A DNA stretch of 64,000 nucleotides. It comes from a virus. Its lineage: Duplodnaviria; Heunggongvirae; Uroviricota; Caudoviricetes. The stretch is from IMG/VR virus record IMGVR_UViG_3300001282_000006; one strand, 5' to 3'. The position numbers were made by a program, and so were the translations under genes. Under the pieces are notes generated by a model. It had not been told where the DNA came from, searched no databases, and was given only the letters and a program-made list of their open reading frames with translations. Below are positions 3,075 through 56,207 of this stretch, one piece after another; the first letter of the stretch is position 1; every line of letters starts with the position of its first letter.

Positions 3075-3092
3075 TAATTTAATATATAACAT

Positions 3093-4798: not shown

Positions 4799-4813
4799 AT
4801 TAATATATACATT

Positions 4814-5675: not shown

Positions 5676-5705
5676 TGAAAACATGTTAGAGTAATATATA
5701 CTCTA

Positions 5706-8825: not shown

Positions 8826-10370
8826 TTAACAATCGTAACAATCTACTTGTCCTCGACCATAACAATTACCACATTCTACTGTTTCATCTCCATCACATTC
8901 ACGACATGTTCTTTTACCATCTCCATCACAATCTGAACAATTCACTTTACCAGATCCATCACAATCTGAACATTCTTCCTCTTCGCCATCAGAGCCTTCA
9001 ACATTACCAGATCCATCACAATTTGAACAATCTTCTTTACCATCACCATCACAACTATTACACTCAATAGTTCCTTCACCATCACAATTACCACAAGAAA
9101 CTGTACCTTCACCGTCACAGTCATAACATTCAGTTCTACCAGAACCATTACAAGTATCACAAGGTCTAACATAGTCACCACCTGTATCTTCTAAGAAGTA
9201 ACAACCACCAGTATCCTCATTTGAAATAGTTTTTGTTCTTGAGTTAAAATATTTAAGTGTATCTAAATAAGGAAAATTATCCATACTAGCATCAGTTAAA
9301 TTAACAGTTAAATCTAAATTAACTCTACTTCCATCTGGAGCTATAGCTTGACCACTATCTGAACTATTATTATGTTCTTTATAGTACCAACCATTTTCTT
9401 TAGCATAATCTCTGAATAGTTCAACATCAGAAGGATTTACTGTATAGATTCTATCTAAATATTCTTTACCATCTTTTAATTTCCAAAGTAATGCTCTACC
9501 GATAATTTTTTCAGTATCATCCATTGATTTGTAAATAACTAAACCAACTTCTGGATTAGCAGTATAAACTTCTAACCAACTATCTGGAGCACCAGCCATA
9601 CAAGACGAACCTAAAGTACCATTTCTTTCAAAGTAGTTTTCATTATGATACCAATGAGCAATATCGGAACCTCTAGCAACTTCAATATAAGAGAATTTAT
9701 CATTCATCTTATCAATAGTAGCTTTATATAAATTCACAAATTGTTCAAAATCTTTATCAGTAAATTCAGCACCAGCCGCTTTTAAAAGCGCTCTCATTGC
9801 TCTACCTACTTTAATCTCTTGTCTACTTGATGACCAAACTTTTTTAAGTTTTTCATCAACAGATCTTAATTTCTCAACATTATAAACGCCTTGACCAGCA
9901 TCATTTCCAGATAAATCTTTAAATTTAACCCAAGCATAAGATTTACCACTTGTTTCAGATGTTACTTTAGCAACAACTTCACCTAAATCTCTTGAATTAG
10001 GTTTATAAGGTTCAGAACCTTCTTCAAATGTATAACCTAGTTTTTCAAATAAGCCATTATTAGACTCTTTGTGTTTTAACCAACCTCCACCAGAACCTGT
10101 AAATCTAACCACTTCTTTAGTATCACCTAAAATCTCTTGTGCTTTTCTATCAGGAGTAAAAGAAATTGTATCATTTTTAGAAAATTCTATATCAAGATAA
10201 TTAGCTTGAACAGTTAAGTCATTATTTTCAACACCTAAAATGGCTTTAGCCATTGGATGGTCAATTTTAGCCATTGCCTTTCTGAAGTTATCAGAGAAAA
10301 CGACATTTGATTCTAGTATAAACTCTAGATTTTCTTTTATAAAGTCTGAATATTTTTTAATCATTTTCAA
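8826..10370 (-). CDS. CTS-like-leader protein with about ten C-terminal DnaJ-type CxxCxGxG zinc-finger repeats.
   Basis: N-terminus MKMIKKYSDFIKENLEFILES. C-terminus CDTCNGSGRTECYDCDGEGTVSCGNCDGEGT...CSDCDGSGKVNCSDCDGDGKRTCRECDGDETVECGNCYGRG. Confidence 0.8.
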   Translation of the reverse strand: MKMIKKYSDFIKENLEFILESNVVFSDNFRKAMAKIDHPMAKAILGVENNDLTVQANYLDIEFSKNDTISFTPDRKAQEILGDTKEVVRFTGSGGGWLKHKESNNGLFEKLGYTFEEGSEPYKPNSRDLGEVVAKVTSETSGKSYAWVKFKDLSGNDAGQGVYNVEKLRSVDEKLKKVWSSSRQEIKVGRAMRALLKAAGAEFTDKDFEQFVNLYKATIDKMNDKFSYIEVARGSDIAHWYHNENYFERNGTLGSSCMAGAPDSWLEVYTANPEVGLVIYKSMDDTEKIIGRALLWKLKDGKEYLDRIYTVNPSDVELFRDYAKENGWYYKEHNNSSDSGQAIAPDGSRVNLDLTVNLTDASMDNFPYLDTLKYFNSRTKTISNEDTGGCYFLEDTGGDYVRPCDTCNGSGRTECYDCDGEGTVSCGNCDGEGTIECNSCDGDGKEDCSNCDGSGNVEGSDGEEEECSDCDGSGKVNCSDCDGDGKRTCRECDGDETVECGNCYGRGQVDCYDC

Positions 10371-10394
10371 CTATGTTATGTTTTATAGATATAA

Positions 10395-10406
10395 GTATAT
10401 ATTAAA
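10395..10406 (-). promoter_or_regulatory. TTTAATATATAC motif upstream of the minus-strand gene 8826..10370.
   Basis: Plus-strand gtatatattaaa. The same motif recurs upstream of many genes. Confidence 0.35.
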
Positions 10407-10437
10407 TATATAATGTACAAAAATTAATTTATTACAT

Positions 10438-10629
10438 ATGTTGATCGTAGAGGTTGAAGGAAAACTAACAATTGAAAAAGCTCTTAAAATTCTTAAAAGA
10501 AAATGGGACAAAACTAAAGCTATGAAAGAGCTTAGAGGAAGAAAAGAATTTACTAAAAAGTCTGTAAAAAGAAGAGCTGAAGTAACAAGAGCCGCTTATA
10601 TTCAGAAGAAATACAGAAGTAATGATTAA
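10438..10629 (+). CDS. rpsU: Ribosomal protein bS21 homologue.
   Basis: 63 aa. IEKALKILKRKWDKTKAMKELRGRKEFTKKSVKRRAEVTRAAYIQKKY follows the bS21 pattern, Flavobacteria-like. Confidence 0.75.
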   Translation: MLIVEVEGKLTIEKALKILKRKWDKTKAMKELRGRKEFTKKSVKRRAEVTRAAYIQKKYRSND

Positions 10630-10921
10630 GAAGTTACTTAGTTTATTTCCCAATCAAAATAATAAAACTTATGATTTAGGAAAATTACAAAAGTCTGGAT
10701 TTATATCATCTTTACCTGATATGTCTGGTTGTCCTAATTGTAAAAGTAAAAATATATCTTGGAAGTTCTTTATACCAACAGATGGTTCTAAACCAACTAT
10801 TCCATCACAAAGTGTTTGTAATGATTGTGGATATAAAGATGAAAAAGGTCAGTTTGAAATGACAAATAAATCGTTACTTAGAGAGAAAAAAATTAATCAA
10901 ATATTAGATGAGTTTCAATAA
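10622..10921 (+). CDS. Zinc-ribbon protein.
   Basis: CPNCKSKN...CNDCGYKDE motifs. Confidence 0.5.
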   Translation: MIKKLLSLFPNQNNKTYDLGKLQKSGFISSLPDMSGCPNCKSKNISWKFFIPTDGSKPTIPSQSVCNDCGYKDEKGQFEMTNKSLLREKKINQILDEFQ

Positions 10922-11123
10922 AAGATTTATCAGTAAAAATAGTTTATTATCAGCCGCTTCTAATGGCTTAGATTACTTAATAGGTTATGTAACAAAACCA
11001 GATGCTCTTATTATAGAGTCGGATGGTATATCTCACCAAGTTTGTGATATTGTTGGCTTAACAAAAGATAAACAAGAGATGAAACAAAAATTAAAAGAAA
11101 TAGGATTCTATGAATTTGAATAA
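10908..11123 (+). CDS. Hypothetical protein.
   Basis: 71-aa ORF. Confidence 0.45.
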   Translation: MSFNKRFISKNSLLSAASNGLDYLIGYVTKPDALIIESDGISHQVCDIVGLTKDKQEMKQKLKEIGFYEFE

Positions 11124-11817
11124 AAACTATTACTCAATTCTTGGAGTTGATAATAACTCTGATGAAAAGGTAATAAAAAAAACTTATTATAAATTATCAT
11201 TTACGCATCACCCTGATAAAGGCGGTAATCCTATTATCTTTGGTGAAATGACTGAGGCATATGATGTTCTTTGTAGTGAACAAAGAAAAGATTATGATGT
11301 TAAAAGTAAATTTGGTAATAATTATAATGAGTATTTTGAGCTATTTGATATTAATTTAGAATTTGATTATAATAAAGAAAAATCAAATTATGAAAAATTC
11401 AAAAAGAATGAAGTTTTAGATATCTATATGAATATAGATGAAACATTTAATGGTACGTTAGAATATGAAAGATGGGTTAAGTGTAAAACTTGTGATGGTA
11501 CAGGTAAAGACCTTTCAGCTAAAATTGTTATTAAAGACAATGATGGTAATATTTTAAGAACATTTGATGCTGATGATGGATGCGATTTCTGTGAAGGATC
11601 TGGTAAAGACTACAAAGGAGATGCTTGTAACTTTTGTAATGGTAAAGGTAAAGTAGGTTTAACACCTTGTAAAAAGTGTAATGGTGAAAAACGAATTTTA
11701 GGAAAACAAAAACTATCAGGTATTAAATTAACCGGTGATGAAACTAAAATTGAATCAATGGGTAATTGCTCTAAAGATGTTGCTGGAATGGTTGGTTATC
11801 TTTTATTAAAAAAATAA
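11110..11817 (+). CDS. dnaJ: DnaJ-like chaperone (J domain plus Cys-rich zinc finger).
   Basis: YYSILGVDNNSDEKVIKKTYYKLSFTHHPDKGG with an HPD tripeptide, then four CxxCxGxG repeats. Confidence 0.8.
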   Translation: MNLNKNYYSILGVDNNSDEKVIKKTYYKLSFTHHPDKGGNPIIFGEMTEAYDVLCSEQRKDYDVKSKFGNNYNEYFELFDINLEFDYNKEKSNYEKFKKNEVLDIYMNIDETFNGTLEYERWVKCKTCDGTGKDLSAKIVIKDNDGNILRTFDADDGCDFCEGSGKDYKGDACNFCNGKGKVGLTPCKKCNGEKRILGKQKLSGIKLTGDETKIESMGNCSKDVAGMVGYLLLKK

Positions 11818-11818
11818 A

Positions 11819-14800
11819 TTATCCTAAAGCAGTACCAACTTTACCAGCTGTTGCCATTTCAACAAATATAACACCACCCGAAGATTGACCAACACCAGCA
11901 CCAACACCACTAACAACTGTATTAGAGTTTTGAGTTTGAATACTATCTAAACCAACTGATATATTATCTATAAAGCTAAAGTTAGAATTAGTATAATCAA
12001 TAAAAGGTGATATTCCTTGATATGGAATTTGAATACCTTTATTAATATTATCTTCTGTAAAATATTGAAAGAATGGAATCATATCCACTTCATAAAAATG
12101 TAAATTATCAATTAAATATTCTACAGTTGTTAAAAATAAAGGACTATATCCATAAAAATGCATGGCTAGATTTCTTTTATTATAAAAATATTCTGATTTT
12201 TTAGTTTTTGATGTTAGTAAATGATTTACATTATCATATACAGGTAAATATGTTGCGGTTGTTAATATTGATGATTCAATTCCACCACTAATAGTAAGTT
12301 TTCTATTAACAAAATTTAAGTTATTAAAGTGTATAGGTGGAACCTGTACATTATTATTAGGTCCAAAATATTTATATGTATAAGGTGCGTGAGTAACTTT
12401 AGAACTTCCTTTCCAACTAAATTCGGTATAATCTGATATAATATTAGAAAATGTTACTAAATCAAACTCAACTTTTGTATATCTGAATCTTTGAATCTCC
12501 TCATATGTTTTGTTTAAAATATCGTTTTCACTAAATGACGTTACATCTAATATACCACCACTAGCAATTGCTTTTACTAACAATTCTTCTCCTGTTATTG
12601 AGTCAATACCTGTATATGTTGGTCTAGAAAATGTTAAAGATGAAACATCCCATCTAGAAAATGTCCAACCATCTTTTATAAATTCATTTTCTCCAGGTAT
12701 ATTGATATATACTTCAGCACTTGCTGCTTGTGATGCCGTAGATGAAAGAAAAGATCCGCCAAATTCTGTTTCAAATTTACCAGCATCTCCTATAAAATCA
12801 CTAAATATTTTATATTTTGTTCCTAGTTTATAACTTCTTATTGTTGTTGAAAAACTATCTCTAAAAGTTGAATCACTTTCTAATATATCATTTGTTGTAT
12901 AACCATATAAGTTATTTTCTGAATAAGTTTTTCTTGATAAGGAATTTAATAAAGCTTGAGGTTTTCCTATGTTACTAGCATATGAATTATCAAATAATAC
13001 ATCCATCCATGAGTTATAAACAAATACCGCATCAGATTCTAATGAGTTATTTGATGTTATTTTAGATATATTGTTTGACTTGAATTTAACTTTTTGTAAA
13101 ACACCTCTAGACATTTCAATTGTTACTGAACCACCTTCTAAAACAGAATCAGATCCCCAATCAATGTCGGTTTTTATTTGGTAATTATTTACAACTTCCG
13201 TAACATAATGTTCACCATCATATTGAGGATTTATTGTTTTATCTGTTTTATCTATTGTTATTAAATCACCAACAGTAAGACCGTGTGGTTGTGAGAAAGT
13301 TAATCCAACACTACCAGCCTGAAATATCGTATCAACAAAATTAGGTATAGTGTATTCAGATGAACTAAAATGACCACCATCAAAAACACCATCAATCCAG
13401 TTTGTATCATACATTTCAGTAATCAATGGATATCCTTTAAATAAACCATAATTCCAAATTCCCTTAAAATATCCATTTAAGAAACCACCAGATAACCAAA
13501 CATTTTTTGTTACATAAATTCTGTGATGATCTGAGTCTTTTTTAACTCTTCTTATTGGGAAGTTATTATCAAATTCAACAATTATACTATTATCAGTTTT
13601 ATTTATGATTGTATAATAACTTTTAAGTACTTTTCTATCCTCATTTATATCAATTGCGATGATATTTCCAATTGAAACATTATCACCAATATTAAAATTA
13701 GAAACTGATGAAGTTGGACCTGTAATCTGTACTCTCCATCTTTTATTTCTATTATATCCAAAGAACTGATTAACATTATGAAACTCATACATTCCTTCAT
13801 CAACTCTCCAACCACTATTCCAAACTCCATTTTCCCAAATACCTGCTTTGAATTTACCATTACCAATTTTTGAATAAATTTGACTAATTCCGGGATTTAT
13901 AAGAGATGCCGTTGCGTTTACACTATTACCATTTCCAACAAGGGCCGTATATGTTGCTCCTGTTAAACCAATAATAGGTGATGAGTATGTTAGACCAGTA
14001 CTCATTATATATTGTCTATTGTTACCAGAGTAGTAACCACCATCAACTGTTATATTTGATAAATATATAGATGAGTATGTTGTACCTGATGCTGATGCTC
14101 CAGCAAATCCACCAACAAAAATCAAATATTGATTTCCTCTAACTCCATAAAATTGTTGAGAAATAGAAGATGTCAGTGATGTTGATCCAGATGGAGAAAC
14201 ACTTTGAGTTAATGTTGCTAGTAATACAGATCCACTCGGTGGTGTATAACTATTAGACACTAAATTGGTCCAATCAGCAGGAGATTGAGATGGTGGAGAA
14301 TATGATGTATATATCTTTAATGGAAAATCACTTTGATTTTGATAAGAAAATGAAAAGTTAAAATATGAATAAGGTACAAATTTAACTAAAGCATTATTTA
14401 ATCTAAATCCAATATTTGATGTCTTACTGCCATTTGGACCACCAACTGGAAAATATCCAGTATTTAACTGTGTTGCGTTAGATGCGGAACCTGTTACTCT
14501 ATCATACCAATGATATTGATCAGAACTTTTATTATAATACCAACCAAGTGAATTTGATACAATTGGTTGATTCTCACTAGCTGTTAGTCTATAATAAGAA
14601 AATCCTTGAATTTTAAAATCTATCTCATTTACGACAAAATCAGTTATGCCCTCATTTGCCACACCTTGACTACTAAATGTACCATTTGCTTTATAAACAA
14701 CATGACTGGTTGATGTTATAGTTGATGTTGGTGTTGAGTAGTGAAAAAAACTTTGAGTAGCATTAAGTGTTGGTGCTACATTTGAAGCACTCATTCCACT

Positions 14801-15121: not shown

Positions 15122-15170
15122 TTTTTATTTTATTTTATTTTTATATATTTATTTTAATCATTTATGTATA

Positions 15171-19502: not shown

Positions 19503-19514
19503 GTATATATTATT
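19503..19514 (-). promoter_or_regulatory. TATATATTA-type motif upstream of the minus-strand gene 15171..19481.
   Basis: Plus-strand gtatatattatt, 22 nt beyond the start codon. Confidence 0.3.
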
Positions 19515-19567: not shown

Positions 19568-20302
19568 ATGAATAAGAAAAAAGTATTGATTTTTACTGGA
19601 GCAGGAGTTTCAGCTGAAAGTGGCGTTGCTACTTTTAGAACTGGTGATGATGGGCTTTGGTATAATCATAAAGTAGAAGATGTTGCCACACCTAGTGGGT
19701 GGCGTAGAGATAGAGAAAAAGTTCTTAATTTCTACAATATGCGTCGTGCTCAAATGAAAGATGTTGAGCCAAATTTGGCGCATAAAATAATTGCTGAATT
19801 AGAAAATGATTATGATGTTACTGTTGTAACTCAAAATGTTGATGATTTACACGAAAGAGCAGGCTCAACTAATATTATTCATCTACATGGTGAGTTAACA
19901 AAAGCTAGAGGCTGTATGTATGATCATAAAACATCACCATTAGACACAGTTGTTGATGTGGGATATAATCCAATTAATATTGGAGATAAATGTCCAACAA
20001 CTGGCTCTCAATTAAGACCTCATATTGTTTGGTTTGGTGAAGATTTAGATCCTGATTTTGTTGATATGGCTACTAAAGCGGCTAAAGAATGTGATGTATG
20101 TATTGTTGTTGGAACTTCAATGAAAGTTTCACCTGCTAATACAATTCCATTTTTGACTAGAGAAACTACTAAGATTTACTATGTAGATTTATCAGACCTT
20201 GATTTCTATGTACCAGAATACAGAAATGACTTATTTACTCATTACCAAGAATTGGCATCAACTGGTATGGAAAAAGTTAAAAACGATTTAAAAAATATTT
20301 AA
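19568..20302 (+). CDS. cobB: Sir2-family NAD-dependent protein deacylase.
   Basis: GAGVSAESGVATFR, TQNVDDLHERAG and a CxxC Zn module (CMYD...CPTTG). HIVWFGE motif. Confidence 0.85.
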   Translation: MNKKKVLIFTGAGVSAESGVATFRTGDDGLWYNHKVEDVATPSGWRRDREKVLNFYNMRRAQMKDVEPNLAHKIIAELENDYDVTVVTQNVDDLHERAGSTNIIHLHGELTKARGCMYDHKTSPLDTVVDVGYNPINIGDKCPTTGSQLRPHIVWFGEDLDPDFVDMATKAAKECDVCIVVGTSMKVSPANTIPFLTRETTKIYYVDLSDLDFYVPEYRNDLFTHYQELASTGMEKVKNDLKNI

Positions 20303-20535: not shown

Positions 20536-21099
20536 ATGTCACAAATATCAATTGTTGATTGGATTACGGCTTTATTAATAGTCGTGCCTTTATTTGCTTT
20601 ACTTATATCAATTCCAAGTTTTATCTCTATGTATAAACTTGGATTCAAAGCTTATGTAGAACAATTGATACTTTTGAAAACAATGTTGAAAAAGATATCA
20701 TCTGGATATAAAATTACTCAAAATCAAGTTTATAATTACAGCGGTGTTAGTTATAATGGACCAAAATCAGTAACACAAGTTGAAACTAATCATTTCTTTC
20801 CAATAGTTATTAATAAAGATAATCTCTTAGTTCTTAATAAGAAAGAAGGTCCATTTAATACTTTACATATTCAGTATTGTAAACATGAAAATGATAACTG
20901 GGATAATAATATGGTTGAGATAAAAACCAGCAATTGTTTATTTACTCAAATTCTAAATGACAGATTTCAAAAAAAAGTTGATAATCTTATGAAAGAGTCT
21001 GTTCAACTTGATGGAGTTGAAAATCTAAATGAACTATTAAATAGTGAAATAACTTCTATTAAAAGAGAAGATAAACTTAATGCTTTATTAAATGATTAA
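20536..21099 (+). CDS. Membrane protein (N-terminal transmembrane segment).
   Basis: Hydrophobic WITALLIVVPLFALLISIPSFI. Confidence 0.55.
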   Translation: MSQISIVDWITALLIVVPLFALLISIPSFISMYKLGFKAYVEQLILLKTMLKKISSGYKITQNQVYNYSGVSYNGPKSVTQVETNHFFPIVINKDNLLVLNKKEGPFNTLHIQYCKHENDNWDNNMVEIKTSNCLFTQILNDRFQKKVDNLMKESVQLDGVENLNELLNSEITSIKREDKLNALLND

Positions 21100-22534: not shown

Positions 22535-23203
22535 TTAAATATTTGGATTAGGTTTGTTAGGTCTTTGATTAGGATTTACTACAGCACCTTTATTTGTCTT
22601 AGGTTCAGCAAAATATAAAGCAAAATTTGTTTCTTTATCTTCAGTACTTAATAACATATTAGGATATTTTGATTTGATAGTATCAATTAATTTATTTCCT
22701 AACTTATTTACAAATTTTACTACTTCTGGGTTTTTCTGCATATCGTATAAGTTAGCAATTTTACCAGATTCTCCAAAAATAGCATCTTTTATATGTGACC
22801 AATTTTTAGAAATATCCTGTTGATAAGTTCCAGGGTATTTTTCATAATCACCAGGTTTCTTTTCATCCATCATCTTTTTAATTATCTCTTTATTTTCAGG
22901 TGCTGTTATAAATTGATAAGCAACAGCATAAACAGGCAGAAACAAGCCAATTTGTTCAACATCTGAAAATTGATGAATTTCTACAGTACCACCTTTACCA
23001 TTCAAATATTTTGAATCTTTTGTACCAACTAAAGAATCACCACCTCTATATTTTGATTTTTCGCTATTTTCTTTTATTTCAACTTCATACCCTTCACTTT
23101 TTACAAGAGAGTATAATTGTTTAGCTATAGATTTTAATTCCAGAAAATCTTCATTAATAGATTCTGAGTCTGAGAAGTTTTCAAATAATTTAAGATGTTT
23201 CAT
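22535..23203 (-). CDS. Hypothetical protein with a CTS-like leader (MKHLKLFE|NF).
   Basis: 222-aa ORF. TTTAATATATAC motif 21 nt upstream. Confidence 0.7.
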   Translation of the reverse strand: MKHLKLFENFSDSESINEDFLELKSIAKQLYSLVKSEGYEVEIKENSEKSKYRGGDSLVGTKDSKYLNGKGGTVEIHQFSDVEQIGLFLPVYAVAYQFITAPENKEIIKKMMDEKKPGDYEKYPGTYQQDISKNWSHIKDAIFGESGKIANLYDMQKNPEVVKFVNKLGNKLIDTIKSKYPNMLLSTEDKETNFALYFAEPKTNKGAVVNPNQRPNKPNPNI

Positions 23204-24966: not shown

Positions 24967-24986
24967 AGTCCAGATTATCTGGACTT
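24967..24986. terminator. Hairpin overlapping the stop of 24975..26090, probably a terminator.
   Basis: gtccagattatctggac flanked by T/A runs. Confidence 0.4.
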
Positions 24987-26090
24987 TTTAAATTCTTTTT
25001 TATCATTAGAAATATAGAATTTATCAAAATTATAGTATTTCTTATACACTTCTTTGATTTTCTTCATATTAACTTTATCTAAAATATCATAAACTGACCA
25101 ACCCTCTGGATTGATATATTGATTAACATTCTTATATCTAAGAATCTCATCTTTAGCCATTCTTACTTTGTAGTAATCTTTAACTAAGTCAAATCTTTCT
25201 TTTGTTAAATATTTATCAGGGTTTGTAATCACCTCTTTAACAGCGTCAACTACACCATTGTAATTTTTATTAGATGTTTGAGTTGAGATAGTATTAATAC
25301 CTTGATTGTTAACTCTTGACTGATAACAATGTACATAATAAACTAATCCTTTTTTCTCTCTAATTTCTTGATAAAGTGGAGATTTTAATCCTAATGACAA
25401 CATAGCATTGATAAAGTGAACATAAGCAAAATCTTCCTCAATTATTGGAGAAAGAATAGCAATAGATGTTTTGTCTTTGAACTCATTACTTAATTCTAAA
25501 TCAACATCATTTTCACCAAACTCAATAGTTTTTGTAATATCTCTCTTAGCAAAATCAATAGTATTGTTTTTGTAAGGTTTGTTTTTAGATACGTTAATAA
25601 TCTTAGTAGGCTTAGCATATTGAAGTTCAAAGAAATTCAAACAATCCATATACTTTAGTTTTTCTAAATCTTCTTTTAATCCAATTGGATCATAATCACC
25701 AAATAATTTACGAGAAAGATTTAACATATGTGTTTGAGTTTGGTCATTGAAACAATCCATGTATTCTTCAAGTACAATGTTTCTTTCATTTTCAAATTGT
25801 TCTTTAGTAACATTGAATTCACCAAGTAAGTCCATAAACTCACCTTTCCACTTATTTACTTTTTCATCTAAGCCAGTTAGATAAAAAACAATTTCATTTG
25901 AACTTGTGTAAGCATTCCAATCAATGCCGTCTTTGTCAAAATCTTCTTGAAGATGATCAAAGTTTTTACACATTAAATGTTCCATTAAGTGAGAGATACC
26001 AAACCAACCTTTTTTCTCAAGATTAGTTGAACCTTCATATACAACGTAGAAACCAGATAATTCAGTTTCAGATTTAAGATTTATTATCAT
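24975..26090 (-). CDS. M16 (pitrilysin / insulinase) family metallopeptidase-like protein.
   Basis: Inverted zinc motif HxxEH (GISHLMEHLMCK) near the N-terminus. Confidence 0.55.
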   Translation of the reverse strand: MIINLKSETELSGFYVVYEGSTNLEKKGWFGISHLMEHLMCKNFDHLQEDFDKDGIDWNAYTSSNEIVFYLTGLDEKVNKWKGEFMDLLGEFNVTKEQFENERNIVLEEYMDCFNDQTQTHMLNLSRKLFGDYDPIGLKEDLEKLKYMDCLNFFELQYAKPTKIINVSKNKPYKNNTIDFAKRDITKTIEFGENDVDLELSNEFKDKTSIAILSPIIEEDFAYVHFINAMLSLGLKSPLYQEIREKKGLVYYVHCYQSRVNNQGINTISTQTSNKNYNGVVDAVKEVITNPDKYLTKERFDLVKDYYKVRMAKDEILRYKNVNQYINPEGWSVYDILDKVNMKKIKEVYKKYYNFDKFYISNDKKEFKKSR

Positions 26091-26136: not shown

Positions 26137-27102
26137 TTATAAGTCAACTTTGAATTTGCCCCAAATGACAACATCACCATCAATAACTTCAATATCAGTT
26201 CCAGCCCATTCTAAATATTTAACTATACCAGATGATACATCTTCTGATGTTGTTGTATCTGGAAAAGCTTTATTAATAGTATCAGCCATTTCATTTGTGT
26301 ATATAATCATTCTATCATCTTCAACTAAAGTAAAATCTTCAATTTGAATTGATGATCTTAAAAAAGAAGTTAAATTTTTTATCAGATTATCACCTAAATC
26401 GGATCTTCTAACTGGAACTTTATTAATTACACCATTACGCATAACACTTGATGATATCATCTCACTCCAGTTATCTTTAATATCTTGTTGTAAATAAACT
26501 AAAGCTTCTTCTCTAAATTGTTCAACTGTATAACCTATTTGATCTAACATTAATTGACCATATTTAGTTTGATGATAACCATATTTATATCTGATGTACA
26601 TCTCATCACCTTCAGCATAAGAGGCCCATCCATCTCCACCTAATGAAATAATATCATTAGCATTTAATCCTAATTTTTTAGCAGTAAAATAAAGATAAAC
26701 ATCACAGTGACCATTTTGACTTCCTATTTGTCCATAACTATTAAACCAACCATCAAAATCTTTATCAACTAATTTATTAGCTTCTTCGCTGAATAAGTTT
26801 TTAATTGATTCAAAGTCCCAACCTTTTTTATTAAGCAAATTTTGCATTTCTTGATAATCAGCTTCAGGGTTAGCATCTTTCCTTTTACACATATCAGAAA
26901 ACCAACCAGGATAAAAATCAGACATAGCAATTACTGACTCTTCAAAATCATCTCTTAACTCTTGTATAGTTTCTTTACCAGTACCTGGTACTTTTAAAAT
27001 AACTCTACTTATAATAGTGTCTAATTCTTGCTTAGTTAATTTTGGCTTAGCAACTAGAGACTCATTAATAAAATCATTATACTTTTTTAAGTTCTTCTTC
27101 AT
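26137..27102 (-). CDS. Hypothetical protein with a CTS-like leader (MKKNLKKYNDFINE|S).
   Basis: 321-aa ORF. Confidence 0.7.
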   Translation of the reverse strand: MKKNLKKYNDFINESLVAKPKLTKQELDTIISRVILKVPGTGKETIQELRDDFEESVIAMSDFYPGWFSDMCKRKDANPEADYQEMQNLLNKKGWDFESIKNLFSEEANKLVDKDFDGWFNSYGQIGSQNGHCDVYLYFTAKKLGLNANDIISLGGDGWASYAEGDEMYIRYKYGYHQTKYGQLMLDQIGYTVEQFREEALVYLQQDIKDNWSEMISSSVMRNGVINKVPVRRSDLGDNLIKNLTSFLRSSIQIEDFTLVEDDRMIIYTNEMADTINKAFPDTTTSEDVSSGIVKYLEWAGTDIEVIDGDVVIWGKFKVDL

Positions 27103-28298: not shown

Positions 28299-28907
28299 AT
28301 GATAAAAGTTGGACTTTCGGGTAATAGATATTCAGGTAAAAATGAAGTCTGTAATATTTTCAGAAAACTCACCATACCTGTTTTTGAAGCAGATACTGTT
28401 TTGAAATTTATTATAAATCATGACGCTTCTGTTAATAGCCAAATAATGGCAAAGTTAAAACCCTTACACGGTAAATCTGTTTATGTAGATCCACAATTTG
28501 TAAAAACTAAAACAGAATTTGATATAGTTGTAGATTGTGCTCAGCATGAACTAATGAGAGCTTATGAAGCTTTCTCTGAAAAACACAAATCTTCTATTTA
28601 CACAATATTTCATTCTTCAATTTTATTTGAAAGAAACTGGCATAAACTAATGAACCACAATATTGCTATTTTTTGTCCAAAAATTACACGAATGGAAAGA
28701 TGTAAAGAATTGACAAATATGAAAGTTTCTGATGTTGCTATGTCAATGAGAAATGAAATAGACGACTTAGATAAAAATAAAATGGCTAACTTTGTAGTTC
28801 ATAATTATAATGGTAGAAAAGTTTTAGACCAAGTTCATCAAATCGACCAGTTTGTTATTGACTCTTATTTAAGATTAGAACAAACTATCGTATCAAAACA
28901 CTATTAA
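28299..28907 (+). CDS. P-loop kinase-like protein (dephospho-CoA-kinase-like fold with a degenerate Walker A).
   Basis: MIKVGLSGNRYSGKNEV..FEAD resembles CoaE MxxIGLTGGIGSGKS...DAD. Start moved to the ATG at 28299. Confidence 0.35.
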   Translation: MIKVGLSGNRYSGKNEVCNIFRKLTIPVFEADTVLKFIINHDASVNSQIMAKLKPLHGKSVYVDPQFVKTKTEFDIVVDCAQHELMRAYEAFSEKHKSSIYTIFHSSILFERNWHKLMNHNIAIFCPKITRMERCKELTNMKVSDVAMSMRNEIDDLDKNKMANFVVHNYNGRKVLDQVHQIDQFVIDSYLRLEQTIVSKHY

Positions 28908-29371
28908 TGAAAACTATTAAAATAAAATTAATCGAACCAACAACTCAAAAATTGGCTTTTGTTAAGCTAATAAAAGAGTGTAGTGGACTTGGTCTAAAAG
29001 AAGCTAAAGATTTGTGTGATAATATACATAGTTATTCAGAAAGAGTTCATGAAATGCCTATTCGTGACTGGGAAACTTATGATTATAACACAGGAGTAAC
29101 TACACCAGCCACAACAGACTACCGTAGAAAATTTACTACTGAAATTAAAAATATTGAGGGTAAATTTGTTGTTAACGGTGGGGTTCAATGGGATAGAAAT
29201 GTAAAAATGTTACAACTTGGAATAGCTGATAAATCTGACTATACCGAATTTATGAAAGATTATATCTTAAATAAATTTGACAATTCAGAAGATTTACTTA
29301 CCTTTGTACTCAATAAGTTTTCTAAAGAAGATTTACAAGAAGCATTCAATAAAATTAATATAGAATTATAA
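28907..29371 (+). CDS. Protein whose N-terminal ~50 aa resemble the C-terminal domain of ribosomal protein bL12 (L7/L12), fused to an unknown domain.
   Basis: [25 protein letters not shown] compared with bL12 CTD [25 protein letters not shown]. Confidence 0.5.
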   Translation: [154 protein letters not shown]

Positions 29372-31049: not shown

Positions 31050-32978
31050 ATGAGTAACATTTTAAATTTTATGTCAAACTATTGGTGGATTGGAGCAATT
31101 GTACTTTGCTTAGTAATGTACAAGTTCATCCTTCGAGTATTTTTCGGACTAGTTATTGTTCCTGAGGACAAGATTGGTTTAGTAACAAAAAAGTTCGTTC
31201 TTTTTGGAGAACACAAAGAACTTACAGGTGACCGTATTATTGCGGTAAATGGTGAAGCAGGTTATCAAGCAGAAATGCTTTCTCCGGGTCTTCATTGGTG
31301 GATGTGGCCTTGGCAGTATAACATCGATATGCATGGATTCGTTGTTATCCCAGAAGGTCATATTGGGTTAGTATCCTCTAAAGACGGTACTGTTCCACAA
31401 ACAGGTCGTATCTTAGGACGTAGAGTAGAATGTGAGAACTTCCAAGATGCTGTTACATTCTTATCGAATGGTGGTCAGAAAGGTCGTCAGTCTGCTTTTA
31501 TTCCAAATGGTGTTTATAAAATCAATACTTACTTATTTGAAGTATCTATTGTTAAACAAGCTACTATTCAAGAGAATATGGTGGGTGTTGTAACTACATT
31601 AGATGGTGAGCCATTAGAGAATGGTCAGATTGCGGGTAAAAATGTTGAAGGACATAATAACTTCCAAGATTTTGATAAATTTCTTGAGTTAGGTGGTAAT
31701 CGTGGTTTACAACAACAAACTATCTTAGCTGGTACTTACAACTTAAACCCTTGGGCTGTTCAAGTAGAAGAAGTACAAATGACTGAGATTCCAATTGGAC
31801 ACGTTGGTGTTGTTATCTCTTTCGTTGGAGAAGATGGTGTTGACGTAACTGGTGTTAACTTCAAACACGGTAACTTAGTTGGTAAAGGACAAAAAGGTGT
31901 TTGGGCTGAGCCATTCGGACCTGGTAAATATCCTATCAATAAGTACACTAATAAGATTGAGTTAGTGCCTACAACAAACTTAGTTCTTAACTGGGCCAAC
32001 GCTCGTACTGAGTCTCACAACTTAGATAAAGGACTTAACACAATTACTGTTCGTTCTAAAGATGGTTTCCCATTCAACTTAGATGTATCACAGATTATCC
32101 ACATTCCAATGACAGAAGCACCTAAAGTGATTGCTCGATTTGGTAACATGAATAACTTGGTATCTCAAGTTTTAGAGCCAACAATTGGTAACTACTTCCG
32201 TAACTCGGCTCAAGATTCTGATGTGATTGCTTTCTTAACTACTCGTAAAGAACGTCAAGATTCTGCGAAACAACACATTTCTAAAGTATTAGATGAATAT
32301 AATGTTCACGCTGTTGATACTTTGATTGGTGATATCGTTCCACCACAAGAGTTGATGAAAACGTTAACTGACCGTAAGATTGCTCAAGAGCAAGAAGTAA
32401 CTTTTGAAACTCAAAAGAAAGCCGCTATCTCTCGTCAAACTTATGAAAAAGAAACTGCGATTGCGGACATGCAAGGTGAAGTAGTAAAAGCCGACCAAGG
32501 TGTACAAATTGCTGAACGTCACGCTGATGCTTCTGTTAAGAAAGCTAAAGGTGATGCTGAATCTGTTAAAATTGCGGCTGAGGCAAGTGCTGAATCAACA
32601 AAGTTGAAAGCAGAAGCAGATGCTACAAGAACATCATTGATTGGTAATGCTGAGGCTGAGGCTATCCTTTCTAAGGGTAAATCTACAGCAGAAGCATACA
32701 AGCTAGCCGTTGAGGCGATGGGTAAAGAAAACTTTACAACATTTAAGGTTACCGAAGAGATTGGTAAAAACGGTGTGAAAATCATGCCAGACTTGTTAAT
32801 CAACGGAGGTGGACAAAGCGGGAACGGAGCAATAGACGGATTATTGGGAGTTCAAATCTTAAACATGATGGGTAACCAAATTGGTAAGAGTATGAACGAC
32901 ACGACAGTGAAATCAGAAGTACCTACTACTGATGTGCCTGTTGAAGATCTTTCTGTCCAAAGGAAAGGTAAGAAGTAA
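31050..32978 (+). CDS. Flotillin-like SPFH/band-7 domain protein (YqiK-like).
   Basis: N-terminal TM (WWIGAIVLCLVMY) and an SPFH core. C-terminal Ala/Glu/Lys-rich coiled coil AEASAESTKLKAEADATRTSLIGNAEAEAIL typical of bacterial flotillins. Confidence 0.75.
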   Translation: MSNILNFMSNYWWIGAIVLCLVMYKFILRVFFGLVIVPEDKIGLVTKKFVLFGEHKELTGDRIIAVNGEAGYQAEMLSPGLHWWMWPWQYNIDMHGFVVIPEGHIGLVSSKDGTVPQTGRILGRRVECENFQDAVTFLSNGGQKGRQSAFIPNGVYKINTYLFEVSIVKQATIQENMVGVVTTLDGEPLENGQIAGKNVEGHNNFQDFDKFLELGGNRGLQQQTILAGTYNLNPWAVQVEEVQMTEIPIGHVGVVISFVGEDGVDVTGVNFKHGNLVGKGQKGVWAEPFGPGKYPINKYTNKIELVPTTNLVLNWANARTESHNLDKGLNTITVRSKDGFPFNLDVSQIIHIPMTEAPKVIARFGNMNNLVSQVLEPTIGNYFRNSAQDSDVIAFLTTRKERQDSAKQHISKVLDEYNVHAVDTLIGDIVPPQELMKTLTDRKIAQEQEVTFETQKKAAISRQTYEKETAIADMQGEVVKADQGVQIAERHADASVKKAKGDAESVKIAAEASAESTKLKAEADATRTSLIGNAEAEAILSKGKSTAEAYKLAVEAMGKENFTTFKVTEEIGKNGVKIMPDLLINGGGQSGNGAIDGLLGVQILNMMGNQIGKSMNDTTVKSEVPTTDVPVEDLSVQRKGKK

Positions 32979-44746: not shown

Positions 44747-44758
44747 TTATATATTAAA
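44747..44758 (-). promoter_or_regulatory. TATATATTAAA-type motif upstream of 41559..44726.
   Basis: Plus-strand ttatatattaaa, 21 nt beyond the start. Confidence 0.3.
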
Positions 44759-45081: not shown

Positions 45082-46911
45082 ATGATTGAACAACTAAAAG
45101 AACAAATTATTAAGGCAAATGATGCCTATAGATTGGGACAACCAATTATATCTGATGCTAAGTATGACCAACTAGTTGAAGAATTATCTTTATTATCTCC
45201 AGATGATGAATTACTTACTAAAGTAGGTATTGAAATCGCTGATGAAACTCGTAAATCACGCCTTCCAATTGAAATGGCTTCGATGAATAAAATCAAGTCG
45301 ATGAATGATGTTGATGATTGGTCTCGTCTGAAAGGCATTTCAAAATCTGAATATGTTATTATCACACCAAAGTTTGATGGCTTATCATTATGTGTTAATG
45401 AGGCTACATCTGAAGCTTGGACTCGTGGTGATGGTGAATTCGGTCAAAAATCGAGCGAACATTACGCTTTAATTCAAAATCACTTAAACTTAGAAGAAGA
45501 TCCATTTAGTTTTACTTATGGTGAAGTAATGATACCTAAACAAGTATTCATTGAAAAATTCTCTGCTGATTTCGCCAACCCTCGTAACTTAGTTGCTGGT
45601 TTGTTAAACTCTAAAACTGTAAGTGATTCTCTAAAAGACTGTCAGTATATTAAATATGGTGCTGTTTGTAAAAGAAACTTCACAACTAAACAAGAAGTTA
45701 TTAACGAACTTAATAAAGGACAAGCATCAAAAGTACAATACTATATTTGTCAACTATCTGATTTATCAGAAGACCTGCTTATTGATTTATTTCATAAGTT
45801 CTCTACTGAATATGAAATCGATGGTTTGATTATCGAATTAAATGACTTAAAACTACAAGATAGATTAGGTCGTGAAACTTCTTCAAACAATCCAGTTTGG
45901 GCTCGTGCCTTCAAACATCCAAGTTTTGAGCAATCTGCTGAAACTGATGTTATTGGAATCTCTTGGAATATCTCTAAACAAGGTTTATTAAAACCAATCC
46001 TACACATTACTCCTGTTAAATTAGATGGTGTTACAGTGTCTAACGTGACTGGTAACAACGCCAGATTCGTAAAAGACTTAGGACTTGGTGTAGGTGCTAA
46101 AGTAGTCGTAAAACGCTCTGGAATGGTTATTCCAATCATTGCTGATGTTATCACTCCAGTTGAATTTGTTCAACCTACAATCGAAGGTGTTGAAGTAGAT
46201 TGGAATGAAGCAGGTATCGAGTTAATTACTTTGACCGAAACTGACGACCAAAAGTTAAAAAAGATTGTTGCTTTCTTTGAAATCTTAGAAGCAGACAATG
46301 TGTCAGAAGGAGTTATCACTCAATTATGGGATGCTGGTTATAAAACAATCAAAGATGTTCTTACTCTTACAACTTCTGACTTAGAGAAGATTGACCGTTT
46401 TGGTAAGAGAAAAGCTGACATCGTTTATAAGTCTATTCAAAAATCTGTTAGTAATGTTCAGTTGTCTAAACTACAACATGCTACAGGTATCTTCAAAGGA
46501 TTAGGTTCTAAGAAATTAGTTCTTTTAGAAGATTTCAAAACTAAACCAACTGTTGACCAAGTAATGTCAATTGAAGGATTTGCTGAAGTATCAGCTAAAT
46601 CATATATCGACTCATATGACATTTTCTTTGACTTTATTAAAGATCTACCTGTCACTATTACTGAAAAAGTTGAGGCTGTTAAAGTTGGCACAGACCTTGA
46701 GGGTAAATCATTTGTCTTTACCGGAGTTCGTAGACCAGATTTAGAATCTGATATTGAATCCCGTGGTGGAAAGATTGGTTCTGGTGTATCAAAAACAACA
46801 ACTCACCTTGTTATGAAAGCTATCGGTAGTGGCTCTTCTAAAGAAAAGAAGGCTATTGACTTGGGTGTTGAAGTGATTACCGTTGAACAATTAGAAAAAT
46901 TATTAAACTAA
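45082..46911 (+). CDS. ligA: NAD-dependent DNA ligase LigA.
   Basis: KFDGLS adenylation (KxDG) motif and a C-terminal BRCT domain (GKSFVFTGVRRPDLESDIESRGGKIGSGVSKTTTHLV). Confidence 0.9.
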   Translation: MIEQLKEQIIKANDAYRLGQPIISDAKYDQLVEELSLLSPDDELLTKVGIEIADETRKSRLPIEMASMNKIKSMNDVDDWSRLKGISKSEYVIITPKFDGLSLCVNEATSEAWTRGDGEFGQKSSEHYALIQNHLNLEEDPFSFTYGEVMIPKQVFIEKFSADFANPRNLVAGLLNSKTVSDSLKDCQYIKYGAVCKRNFTTKQEVINELNKGQASKVQYYICQLSDLSEDLLIDLFHKFSTEYEIDGLIIELNDLKLQDRLGRETSSNNPVWARAFKHPSFEQSAETDVIGISWNISKQGLLKPILHITPVKLDGVTVSNVTGNNARFVKDLGLGVGAKVVVKRSGMVIPIIADVITPVEFVQPTIEGVEVDWNEAGIELITLTETDDQKLKKIVAFFEILEADNVSEGVITQLWDAGYKTIKDVLTLTTSDLEKIDRFGKRKADIVYKSIQKSVSNVQLSKLQHATGIFKGLGSKKLVLLEDFKTKPTVDQVMSIEGFAEVSAKSYIDSYDIFFDFIKDLPVTITEKVEAVKVGTDLEGKSFVFTGVRRPDLESDIESRGGKIGSGVSKTTTHLVMKAIGSGSSKEKKAIDLGVEVITVEQLEKLLN

Positions 46912-50470: not shown

Positions 50471-51064
50471 ATGAAAAACATTGAATATTTTTTTGAATTA
50501 ATACAAAAATCTGATATATCTCTTTTGGGGTATAGATTCAAGCAGGAAAGACTCAAAGACGAGATTATTTCTAAACTACCTCACTTGGTGGTTCCTGAAA
50601 TAGACTCGTCTTTTTCTTTTAAATCTTTTTTAAGAGATTTGAAACTTCAATCAATTTTAGAAACTGGTAATACTGTAAACAATCCAGAGTATCTTGTTTT
50701 AGATTTAAATGAGATTATATTTAAGTCAGATGATTTAGGAGGTAGACAAAATCAAATAGGAAATATTATTAATAAAATCAGAGAAGATTTATACTCAAAT
50801 TATTCTGATGTTTACCCTCAAACACCACCTTATAAACTTTTAATGTTAACATCACTATATAGTAGTGTAAAGAATGTTGATGATGCTAGTATTACAAATT
50901 TCAAAGGTGGTAGTAAACCAATTTATGTAAGTGATGTGGCTATTGTGATGGAAGAGGAGTCAATGAAAGTAATAAAGAATAGATTTGATGATAACAACAT
51001 TGATATTTCTTACAACAAATTAAAAGATTATAACTATATTTGTAACTATGAAAATAACAACTAA
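50471..51064 (+). CDS. Hypothetical protein.
   Basis: 197-aa ORF. Confidence 0.55.
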   Translation: MKNIEYFFELIQKSDISLLGYRFKQERLKDEIISKLPHLVVPEIDSSFSFKSFLRDLKLQSILETGNTVNNPEYLVLDLNEIIFKSDDLGGRQNQIGNIINKIREDLYSNYSDVYPQTPPYKLLMLTSLYSSVKNVDDASITNFKGGSKPIYVSDVAIVMEEESMKVIKNRFDDNNIDISYNKLKDYNYICNYENNN

Positions 51065-51482
51065 TAGAAAAGCTTATTATGAATACTTTGTGTTGGAAGA
51101 CTTCGACGCAGGTGTAATGCTATTGGGAGCTGAAGTTAAATCAGTTAGAGAAGGCAATGTTTCTATAGTTGATTGTTTTGCTTATATCACTAATGGTGAA
51201 GTTTGGTTAAAGAATATGAAAGTAGCCAGATATAAACAAACACATGTGGCTGAAAAACATGATGAAAGTCGAGATAAGAAATTACTTCTTAATCGAAAAG
51301 AGATTAATAGAATTGAAAAGTTACTTCAAGATAAAGGAACAACTATGGTTCCACTTGAAATATTTACAGCACATAACCGTGTAAAGGTTAAGATTGGTGT
51401 TGTTAAAGGAAAAAAGTTGTACGATAAAAGAGAAACAATCAAAAAAAGAGATATGGATCGAGAGATCCGTCGAACGGTATAA
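51048..51482 (+). CDS. smpB: SsrA-binding protein SmpB.
   Basis: NRKAYYEYFVLEDFDAGVMLLGAEVKSVREG...KKLLLNRKEI...KVKIGVVKGKKLYDKRETIKKRDMDRE aligns along its whole length with bacterial SmpB. Confidence 0.85.
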   Translation: MKITTNRKAYYEYFVLEDFDAGVMLLGAEVKSVREGNVSIVDCFAYITNGEVWLKNMKVARYKQTHVAEKHDESRDKKLLLNRKEINRIEKLLQDKGTTMVPLEIFTAHNRVKVKIGVVKGKKLYDKRETIKKRDMDREIRRTV

Positions 51483-51483
51483 A

Positions 51484-51846
51484 ATGGCTCGTAAATTAAA
51501 AGATATTAAACCTATATTAGAAGATTTAAATAAATCTTTGACAGAAGAAGAAATACTCAAACATCTTATTCTGTTAGTTAAAGGTTTTGATCCAAATCAA
51601 TATAGAGAAGTTATATACAGTAATCCATATTACAAGGCTTTAATACCAGATATTCAAAAAGATATAATTGAAGAGTTGGAAAAAATTAGTAAATCTATAC
51701 AAAATGAGATAGATACAATTGAATCTGATTTAAAAAAAGCCACTATAACATCAGCTAAAGAATTAAAAAAATTGAAAAGTGATTGTTTATCTTTGATATA
51801 TGAAATTGATGAGCGTAAAAAAGAAATTGATTCCTTATCTAAGTAA
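51484..51846 (+). CDS. Hypothetical protein.
   Basis: ATG at 51484 (MARKLKD...). Confidence 0.5.
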   Translation: MARKLKDIKPILEDLNKSLTEEEILKHLILLVKGFDPNQYREVIYSNPYYKALIPDIQKDIIEELEKISKSIQNEIDTIESDLKKATITSAKELKKLKSDCLSLIYEIDERKKEIDSLSK

Positions 51847-53532: not shown

Positions 53533-53539
53533 AATGTAT

Positions 53540-54018
53540 ATATTAAAATTTATTTGGTAAATTGAAACTTTCTTTCTACATTTGTATAAGAATTAACCAA
53601 GAGTCGTTAAGACAAGAGCTAAGAAATTAGCGTGTCGAAAGATTTCACATTAATATATGATAAAACCGTGTGAGTCTTAACGAAATTATGGTAGTAAGTA
53701 GCTGTTAAATAAGTTAACACCCTTGTTAAAGCCAGTGAACTACCTTGTAAATATAACTATATAATAATAGTAAGGGTGTAGATATCGAAGTCGTGTTGGT
53801 GATAGATGTCTCAAATAACTAATGATTAAACCCAACTCAAAGAAGATTTTAAACGAGCAGAATGGTAACACTGCTCAACCGAGGCGAAAGCATATTAAAA
53901 GGTAATCCTAAGTGATGAGGTCACTAAAAGTCAAGGTAAGGTTCTCGGATTTCGACCATACTTGACAGACGTTCCACCAATCTTCTTTTTTAATTGTAAA
54001 TAAGTAAATAAAAATAAA
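53540..54018. other. 480-bp ORF-free region that is GC-richer than its surroundings. It is a candidate structured non-coding RNA or regulatory region (tmRNA partner of SmpB, or an origin).
   Basis: No ORF longer than 28 aa in a genome otherwise packed end to end. Local GC is clearly above background. Confidence 0.25.
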
Positions 54019-54423
54019 ATGACACTGAAAGAAAAAATCAACGCAGACTTTATGACAGCATTTAAGTCTAAGAACATGGTAGCAAAAAGCATACTATCTG
54101 TTGTTAAAGGAGAAATTCAAACTGTAGAAAAGAATATTGGTTCTGATAATCTTTCAGATGTTGAGGTAACTAAAATTCTTACAAAAACTGTAAAGTCTCT
54201 TAAAGAAACTATTACATTAAGCAATGACGAAAAATCTAAAGTAGAATTGTCAGTAATTGAAGTTTATCTTCCAACACAAATGTCTAAAGAAGAAGTTACA
54301 GCTAAAGTAACAGAACTTGTTAATTCTGGAATCACACAAATCGGTGCTATTATGAAAGAATTCGCAACTCTTCCAGCTGATAAGAAAATGGTTTCTGAAT
54401 CAATCAAAGAAGTTATTAAGTAG
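54019..54423 (+). CDS. GatB/YqeY-domain protein.
   Basis: MTLKEKINADFMTAFKSKNMVAKSILSVVKGEIQ fits the YqeY family pattern. Confidence 0.7.
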   Translation: MTLKEKINADFMTAFKSKNMVAKSILSVVKGEIQTVEKNIGSDNLSDVEVTKILTKTVKSLKETITLSNDEKSKVELSVIEVYLPTQMSKEEVTAKVTELVNSGITQIGAIMKEFATLPADKKMVSESIKEVIK

Positions 54424-55900: not shown

Positions 55901-55973
55901 GGAACCTAAGCTAATCAGGTGAAAGCACTGGACTGAAAATCCAGGGAGCCCGGATCGTTACCGGGAGGTTCCA
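55901..55973 (+). tRNA. tRNA with a GAA anticodon (Phe-like) and an atypical T-loop ATCGTTA.
   Basis: GGAACCT..CTGGA-CTGAAAA-TCCAG..CCCGG-ATCGTTA-CCGGG-AGGTTCC-A. Confidence 0.45.
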
Positions 55974-56124: not shown

Positions 56125-56129
56125 CAAAA

Positions 56130-56201: not shown

Positions 56202-56207
56202 CAACAT

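Follow-up and report, generated by a model that had tools for sequence, protein, structure and literature searches.

A Bacteroidota-type homologue of ribosomal protein bS21 in a predicted operon of a Mahaphage-related huge phage

A homologue of the small-subunit ribosomal protein bS21 was identified from its sequence, with matches far beyond chance, as the 63-aa product of positions 10438..10629 in a 64,000-nt stretch of viral DNA (the whole stretch is called the window here). The gene is real, conserved and under purifying selection. It probably provides a functional bS21 of the Bacteroidota type to a huge phage of the Mahaphage lineage, whose host would belong to the Bacteroidota. Phage-encoded bS21, its prevalence in aquatic Bacteroidota phages, the argument from Tyr54 and the hypothesis that the protein redirects or hijacks the host ribosome have all been published (PMC6375957, PMC7162821, PMC9723584), and the window gene is of this known kind. 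The additions made here are modest, namely a predicted operon with a DnaJ-like gene, a divergent promoter-like element built on the motif TAATATATA[AC], and a discordance between bS21 alleles and their genomic background. The features of the locus are given below.

8826..10364, minus strand: divergent Cys-rich protein of 512 aa, N-terminus MIKKYSDFIKENLEF, with eight CxxCxGxG (10 CxxC) in its C-terminal part
10365..10437, no strand: AT-rich spacer, 73 nt long, that separates bS21 from the divergent Cys-rich gene
10395-10403, minus strand: motif copy AATATATAC in the 73-nt intergenic region
10405-10413, plus strand: motif copy AATATATAA, back to back with the opposite-strand copy at 10395-10403
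10438..10629, plus strand: bS21 (rpsU-like) CDS, 63 aa, ATG start, based on the ORF list, profiles, homologues and dN/dS
10622..10921, plus strand: zinc-ribbon protein (CPNC...CNDC) of 99 aa, gene 2 of the predicted operon, ATG start, with 8 nt shared with the end of bS21
10908..11123, plus strand: 71-aa protein with function unassigned, gene 3 of the predicted operon, overlapping the zinc-ribbon gene by 14 nt
11110..11817, plus strand: DnaJ-like protein of 235 aa, last gene of the predicted operon, overlapping the 71-aa gene by 14 nt

The initial annotation had assigned the 63-aa frame to bS21 by its signature, and the residues it quoted were exactly those encoded at 10438..10629 on the plus strand. 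It had proposed a search with S21 profiles and an alignment with Flavobacteriia, and both agreed with the assignment. Pfam Ribosomal_S21 (PF01165) was matched at 38.5 bits (cut-off 27, E 9.3e-10) over profile positions 2-52 of 55, and the NCBIfam equivalog TIGR00030 'S21p' at 29.7 bits, a narrow pass with less than 1 bit over its cut-off of 28.95; PHROG 21469, 'ribosomal protein S21', was also matched (E 0.0018). When the sequences of the PDB were searched at E<=10, all 11 distinct sequences recovered were bS21 chains. The top match was bS21 of the F. johnsoniae 70S ribosome (7JIL, chain 7jil_z, E 5e-11), which could be aligned with the window protein without gaps from residue 1 to residue 57. 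A second bS21 chain (9i5v_9, E 3.3e-9) aligned as well as 7jil_z, and the bS21 chains of all remaining solved ribosomes gave E>=0.05. The window protein began where cellular bS21 begins, at residue 1, and had no N-terminal extension. Like bS21 in general, which is small (about 55-75 aa), basic and made of two helices, the protein carried a net charge of +13 and a KKS turn at residues 40-42, and its AlphaFold model (mean pLDDT 78) consisted of helices 12-34 and 41-60; structure searches with this model found nothing significant.

Among 5.8 billion proteins, 305 homologues were recovered, which were 62-63 aa long apart from a few longer ones of 81-85 aa (three among the best 120 of the 305). These best 120 were 73-97% identical to the window protein, and many of them already bore the JGI name 'small subunit ribosomal protein S21'. 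The identical protein was present in 324 blocks indexed in a public assembly collection, on contigs of up to 196 kb, and the gene order around it was unchanged in all six places shown. The dN/dS of bS21 was 0.06-0.22 (Nei-Gojobori, against relatives at 63-73% protein identity), and six strain-level loci (L001-L006) held no non-synonymous and up to four synonymous changes in this gene. Across 28 aligned relatives W23, K40, S42, Y54, K58, Y59 and D63 were among the invariant residues.

To judge from its residues and its closest cellular relatives, which were Bacteroidota, the window protein is of the Bacteroidota type and retains the positions that hold the anti-Shine-Dalgarno (anti-SD) sequence. 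In F. johnsoniae the anti-SD is sequestered with the help of two bS21 residues, Ile55, which packs against the 16S 3' tail, and Tyr54, a signature of the phylum, which stacks on A1534 (Jha et al. 2020, PMC7797042). Both residues, Y54 and I55, were found in the window protein in the ungapped alignment with 7jil_z, and Y54 was invariant not only in the 28 relatives but also in all 14 phage and bacterial sequences compared. A scan of 185,579 species genomes (one per species, GTDB contigs) gave two confirmed bS21 matches, both from Bacteroidota, namely Reichenbachiella versicolor and a Crocinitomicaceae MAG, with 54-55% identity to the window protein; its identity to three cellular Bacteroidota copies was 47-51%. 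The C-terminal domain had a net charge of +5 in the window protein and in two cellular Bacteroidota copies alike, and the KKS variant of the KPS/T turn was shared with the cellular Reichenbachiella bS21.

Chen et al. 2022 (PMC9723584) located the divergence of phage bS21 from the bacterial protein in the N-terminal helix. Here the window protein had I18-L19 in place of [R/K]-[Y/F] and W23 in place of F when compared with all four cellular Bacteroidota sequences, and K27 in place of G in three of the four. W23 was invariant in the phage clade of the window. A syntenic relative, the IMG/VR contig L012, carried the host-like F23, so W23 is not required.

The window had 30% GC and was 91% coding in a simple ORF call. 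Its gene content marks it as phage DNA, related to the huge phages of 630-740 kb. Virion genes were present, for a structural protein (phrog_8510, E 2e-38) and for a tail fibre, and a 1055-aa protein was 72.5% identical to its counterpart in LR745206 (635 kb) and 70.4% in LR756502 (642 kb), over 100% of its length; more distant relatives of this protein were found in Lak (Prevotella), Chryseobacterium, Tenacibaculum and Flavobacterium phages. LR756502 was syntenic with the window through the SbcC-like ATPase, a small ORF, a 510-aa Cys-rich protein on the opposite strand, bS21, the DnaJ-like protein and a large opposite-strand protein. The same arrangement was observed on L012 (476 kb) and on a second IMG/VR contig, L013 (436 kb), the Cys-rich gene being replaced in the latter. 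Megablast of positions 9000-13000 against 50,697 phage records gave no match, and relatives were found at the protein level only, so the phage corresponds to no deposited genome.

Genomes over 634 kb were grouped as the 'Mahaphage' clade, with predicted Bacteroidetes hosts, by Al-Shayeb et al. 2020 (PMC7162821). Synteny and protein similarity place the window in this lineage, as a probable assignment, while the formal basis of the clade is a terminase and capsid phylogeny, neither gene having been identified in the window. No terminase, portal or capsid family was present in the precomputed Pfam annotation of about 10 kb on each side in L001-L006, where most genes had no family at all. Other translation genes of the window were SmpB (179.6 bits), a YqeY-domain protein, a protein with the L7/L12 C-terminal domain and 11 tRNAs; no tmRNA partner for SmpB was detected in the window by ARAGORN or Rfam (gathering threshold). 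This gene set had been described as an unusually broad translation toolkit. The genes are real, but their breadth is typical and the description was overstated, because Al-Shayeb et al. reported the same set (S21, tRNAs, SmpB and L7/L12) for huge phages as a group, and proposed that S21 redirects initiation (PMC7162821).

With overlaps of 8, 14 and 14 nt between successive genes, bS21 probably heads a four-gene operon which ends in the DnaJ-like gene. The DnaJ-like protein had a J domain (PF00226, 53.9 bits) with HPD at residue 34, three CxxCxGxG and one CxxC. Linkage of bS21 to this gene was present in the window, L001-L006, L009, L012 and L013, and absent in LR756501, where bS21 adjoined a 361-aa ORF in a different neighbourhood. 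The gene for the 99-aa zinc-ribbon protein was kept in L001-L006 and L012. The 512-aa Cys-rich protein had an uncharacterised N-terminal region, Pfam matches below threshold only, and no J domain; orthologues of its gene existed in LR756502 (510 aa) and L012, while in L013 it was missing and another gene stood in its place. The locus had been portrayed as bS21 between two DnaJ-type zinc-finger proteins, which is roughly correct in that genes with CxxCxGxG lie on either side, but the upstream one lacks a J domain and two small ORFs intervene downstream.

An SD core (GGAG, GAGG or AGGA at -20..-4) was present in 3 of 74 window genes, against 5.6% at random positions. There was thus no enrichment, and the proposal that the phage messages lack Shine-Dalgarno sequences held. 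The leader of bS21 (...aaaaattaatttattacatATG) contained none of the three cores, so an SD of the kind found in the rpsU of many Flavobacteriia was absent. No obvious SD was seen either at the two nearest cellular rpsU loci, those of Reichenbachiella and the Crocinitomicaceae MAG; since both cellular controls are without one, its absence does not set the phage gene apart from the likely host class.

A start context at fixed positions was considered and rejected, with at most 0.19 bits per position upstream of the ATG, all of it A-richness. The motif TAATATATA[AC] occurred in 21 copies in the window against 7.6 expected, a number reached in none of 100 shuffles; 16 copies were intergenic and oriented towards the downstream gene. 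The spacing from motif to ATG was bimodal, with 3-4 nt in six genes and 19-30 nt in eight genes, bS21 included. What remains of the 'conserved start contexts' of the initial annotation is therefore this motif, which recurs upstream of many starts, whereas no fixed position was informative beyond A-richness. With its two back-to-back copies, the region 10365..10437 is inferred to be a putative divergent promoter common to bS21 and the Cys-rich gene. Its core GATATAAGTATATATTAAATATATAA was kept in L011 and L012, despite the saturated synonymous divergence of their bS21 genes. The 1100-, 1436- and 1347-aa proteins had no match in PHROG, so the genes which share the motif give no indication of when bS21 is expressed.

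The bS21 gene did not follow its neighbours when the window was compared with L012. The flanking proteins were close, with 94% protein identity at the C-terminus of the SbcC-like protein and 91% for DnaJ, whereas bS21 had 63%; nucleotide identity was 85-88% in the flanks and 66.7% in bS21, and the trough reached into the beginning of the following ORF. Five of the six neighbours had a dS of 0.46-0.69, while bS21 had pS 0.70 and a dS of about 2, calculated from only ~36 synonymous sites; dS was also raised, to 0.94, in a 96-aa ORF near bS21. L013 displayed the reverse, its flanks being more distant from the window (64-71%) and its bS21 closer (73%). Two allele types could be distinguished, W23/...KKYRSND in the window and F23/...EKFGNND in L012. 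Because excess synonymous divergence cannot arise from selection on the protein, these data suggest that divergent bS21 alleles have been exchanged among related phages. Within the population of the window, bS21 was 97.9% identical to that of L005 at the nucleotide level, compared with 92-96% for the neighbouring genes. This high conservation echoes an observation of Chen et al., who found identical bS21 in otherwise diverged genomes.

During infection, phage bS21 would be expressed, first in the four-gene operon, from the promoter-like element, and would bind the platform of the host 30S subunit at the bS21 site. There it may replace the host bS21, or keep ribosomes stocked with bS21 as host gene expression declines. 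bS21 is a dynamic and easily exchangeable ribosomal protein (Mizuno et al. 2019, PMC6375957), and is among the last proteins to join the 30S subunit in assembly (Jha et al. 2020, PMC7797042). Since Tyr54/Ile55 are kept, the phage copy would hold the anti-SD like the host protein and would not alter SD usage; ribosomes carrying it would be expected to stay SD-blind, which would suit SD-less phage messages with A-rich leaders. A-rich leaders are described for host Bacteroidota mRNAs also (PMC13000457). In F. johnsoniae, bS21 is essential and its gene is autoregulated through its SD (McNutt et al. 2023, PMC9976891). With no SD in front of it, the phage gene might escape the SD-dependent feedback on rpsU translation of many Flavobacteriia, an escape which would apply only in an SD-bearing host of the Flavobacteriia type. 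The changes in the N-terminal helix (I18-L19, W23) would be the sole candidates for a preference for phage mRNA, which is speculative. In freshwater Bacteroidetes phages, bS21 was strongly transcribed alongside structural genes (PMC9723584). The bS21 of a pelagiphage enters E. coli ribosomes, and in this heterologous system, the sole published functional test, those ribosomes were nearly inactive, with ~5% of the control activity (PMC6375957); a boost of translation by simple replacement is therefore not established.

That the DNA is not viral and the gene is the rpsU of the host itself is hardly credible. The curated S21 models are indeed passed, and the GC content and SD-less starts resemble those of Bacteroidota, but this reading conflicts with the virion structural and tail-fibre genes, the synteny with LR756502, the 70-72% protein identity to deposited phages, and the viral contigs of IMG/VR (436-476 kb) on which relatives lie. 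Moreover the nearest cellular bS21 was just 54-55% identical, and rpsU of Reichenbachiella was followed by 291-aa and 100-aa ORFs, unlike the neighbours in the window. A role away from the ribosome is very unlikely too. In that case bS21 would serve as a small basic RNA-binding protein, for example regulating its own operon or titrating some factor of the host as a decoy, or would be packaged in the virion, a possibility raised by Chen et al. (PMC9723584); its place in one operon with non-ribosomal proteins would fit this reading. The protein aligned over its full length and without gaps to ribosome-bound bS21, however, and Tyr54/Ile55 were conserved across all phage copies, the pattern expected from the constraint of a ribosomal binding site. 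It also had neither an N-terminal extension nor the MK-x-L-K-x-F-E-type N-terminus of other window proteins.

Two readings on the ribosome are left to compare. In the first, a bias of the kind put forward by the initial annotation and by Chen et al., the phage copy might replace that of the host and, through its diverged N-terminal helix over the mRNA/anti-SD region, make the ribosomes prefer phage mRNAs, among which could be leaderless or near-leaderless ones with starts 3-4 nt after TAATATATA[AC]. Positions 18-19 and 23 differed from all four cellular sequences, W23 was invariant in the clade, the N-terminal helix was flagged by Chen et al. (PMC9723584) as the site of phage/bacterial divergence, and the motif preceded the start codon by 3-4 nt in six genes and by 19-30 nt in eight. 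This selectivity is nevertheless doubtful, as no mRNA feature specific to the phage was found at a set spacing from the start codon, A-richness was common to host mRNAs, and L012 carried the host-like F23. Alternatively, specificity would be unchanged, and the phage would supply a loosely bound, essential protein when the supply from the host fails, so that the ribosome pool is kept complete for a long and protein-hungry infection; the syntenic relatives span 436-642 kb. The charge of the C-terminal domain (+5), indistinguishable from that of cellular Bacteroidota copies, the retention of Tyr54/Ile55 under strong purifying selection, the essential and autoregulated bS21 of F. johnsoniae (PMC9976891), and the maintenance-type translation genes of the window (SmpB, tRNAs and the YqeY-domain protein) would favour such replenishment. 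It would leave unexplained the consistent divergence of the N-terminal helix from cellular copies and the exchange of divergent alleles between close phages. Replenishment is a tentative possibility, and it is judged somewhat more likely than selective translation because the rRNA-contacting half is host-like, no phage-specific leader feature was found and F23 occurs in a syntenic relative.

A further idea, regarded as unlikely, is that the bS21 locus acts as an exchangeable 'ribosome-compatibility cassette'. Recombination would swap alleles so that they fit, or retune, ribosomes in different Bacteroidota hosts; the allele would help to set the host range or would favour the SD-less messages of the phage, some of them perhaps leaderless and starting 3-4 nt after TAATATATA[AC]. 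No ribosomal protein is carried by viruses more commonly than bS21, and the phage copy offers one of the few handles on a possible viral reprogramming of bacterial ribosomes; it would matter more in Bacteroidota because bS21 there helps to hide the anti-Shine-Dalgarno sequence. The present locus is an abundant and conserved example with a predicted operon and a candidate promoter, and its divergent alleles on near-identical backbones could provide ready-made allele-swap comparisons in a cultivable host.

Among known systems, bS21 of the pelagiphage HTVC008M (PMC6375957) is the only phage bS21 placed in ribosomes by experiment. Like the window gene it is phage-encoded and under purifying selection, but it is of alphaproteobacterial (Pelagibacter) origin and was not among the tblastn matches (E<=1e-3) to the window copy when the phage collection was searched; a parallel role is only inferred, because the host lineage is different. 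Cellular Bacteroidota bS21 (7JIL; PMC7797042, PMC9976891) shares with the window copy its length, Tyr54/Ile55 and a moderately basic C-terminal domain, while the window copy differs in being phage-borne, in lying in an operon with a DnaJ-like gene, and in lacking the SD of many Flavobacteriia rpsU. The Mahaphage-clade huge phages (LR756502, LR745206, LR756501/3/4; PMC7162821) appear to be of the same lineage, and LR756502 has the same bS21 locus. The bS21 of these records was 48-59% identical to the window copy, compared with 70-72% for the structural-type 1055-aa protein. Many phage S21 proteins have N-terminal extensions (PMC7162821), and the window copy has none.

The jumbo myoviruses of Chen et al. 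2022 (clades a-e; PMC9723584) resemble the window in low GC, predicted Bacteroidetes hosts, an aromatic residue 54, the divergence of the N-terminal helix, a divergent partner gene beside bS21 and identical bS21 in distant samples. They came from freshwater lakes, and their divergent partner gene is fam498; in the window this position is taken by the Cys-rich gene. Their genomes are 293-331 kb, with bS21 on the reverse strand inside a block of terminase, portal, protease and capsid genes, an arrangement which the window does not share. The window instead has the bS21/Zn-ribbon/71-aa/DnaJ operon beside an SbcC-like gene, and the contigs of its lineage are 436-642 kb long.

The bS21 gene (10438-10629) and its flanks gave discordant divergences when the window was compared with L012, a syntenic locus on a 476-kb IMG/VR contig. 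The pS of bS21 against its counterpart in L012 (3001-3189) was 0.70 (dS about 2), against a dS of 0.46-0.69 in five of the six neighbouring genes, so the bS21 allele was discordant with its own flanks. For L013, a related locus on a 436-kb IMG/VR contig, the flanks were more distant from the window and bS21 was closer. Because bS21 and flank divergence disagree in both L012 and L013, the sequences suggest that bS21 alleles have been exchanged by recombination.

The divergent neighbour of bS21 encodes a Cys-rich protein.

8826-10364, (-), Cys-rich protein of 512 aa

Its C-terminal array was composed of eight CxxCxGxG repeats (10 CxxC) spaced by 11 residues, save one 19-residue gap, and the N-terminal region of about 400 aa had no match to any family. 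The protein was kept in LR756502, a syntenic 642-kb huge-phage record of Al-Shayeb et al. (45% identity), and in L012 (76%), and its place in L013 was taken by another gene. It might be the co-transcribed 'bS21_CN' partner described by Chen et al. (2022, PMC9723584).

A similar N-terminal peptide was carried by this protein and eight others of the 74 in the window, for example MKHLKLFENFSD, MKYLKLFENFTD, MKNLKTFEAFNN and MIKKYSDFIKENLEF, and it was also found in two related loci. The same pattern, which was defined post hoc, fits 1.2% of internal Met positions.

Window genes with the peptide, start positions: 3093, 4055, 4814, 34619
Window genes with the peptide, all (-): 8826-10364, 22535-23203, 26137-27102, 51835-53532, 61706-62215
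Outside the window: L009 2261-3793 (-); L010 2246-2584 (-)

The T4 capsid targeting sequence is cleaved after L/I-x-E. The window peptides are similar to this sequence, MKTYQEFIAE, a string found in one paper in which the term 'capsid targeting sequence' is used as well. The proteins with the peptide, including the Cys-rich neighbour of bS21, may be packaged in the head or ejected.

The motif TAATATATA[AC] was over-represented in the window, with 21 copies against 7.6 expected, 16 of which were intergenic and oriented toward the gene downstream.

Example sites: 3081-3089, 4802-4810, 5693-5701, 10405-10413
Example sites, all (-): 10395-10403, 15141-15149, 19503-19511, 44747-44755, 53536-53544, 63641-63649

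The distance from motif to ATG was bimodal, either 3-4 nt or 19-30 nt. The motif is probably a phage promoter, and mRNAs from the 3-4 nt class would be leaderless or nearly so.

Only one of the 74 genes (20536-21099, (+)), whose 187-aa product is predicted to be a membrane protein, had a canonical-looking SD, AGGAG located 8 nt ahead of the ATG (upstream TTTTAGGAGAATAATATG), which is chance level. Its message could be translated by bS21-free ribosomes.

Other translation genes were identified as well.

55901-57701, tRNA cluster (9 tRNAs by ARAGORN, 11 by Rfam)
51048-51482, SmpB (179.6 bits)
54019-54423, YqeY-domain protein
28907-29371, 154-aa protein, residues 1-40 matching the L7/L12 C-terminal domain (29.7 bits vs 25.9)

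Two Rfam tRNA matches, 56739-56879 with 141 nt and 56946-57073 with 128 nt, were longer than is usual for a tRNA, which introns within them may explain, and three tRNAs called Lys were 84-85 nt, an atypical length for tRNA-Lys. No tmRNA to go with SmpB was detected in the window by ARAGORN or Rfam.

Five accessory genes were also present.

19568-20302, 24975-26090, 31050-32978, 45082-46911, 60501-61571, accessory genes

Three had Pfam matches, namely an M16-family peptidase, a 642-aa SPFH/Band-7 protein and an M42 aminopeptidase. A Sir2-family protein is named in the precomputed annotation of orthologues in L001-L006, six loci with an identical bS21 protein. Judging by its N-terminus, another protein, of 609 aa, may be an NAD-dependent DNA ligase.
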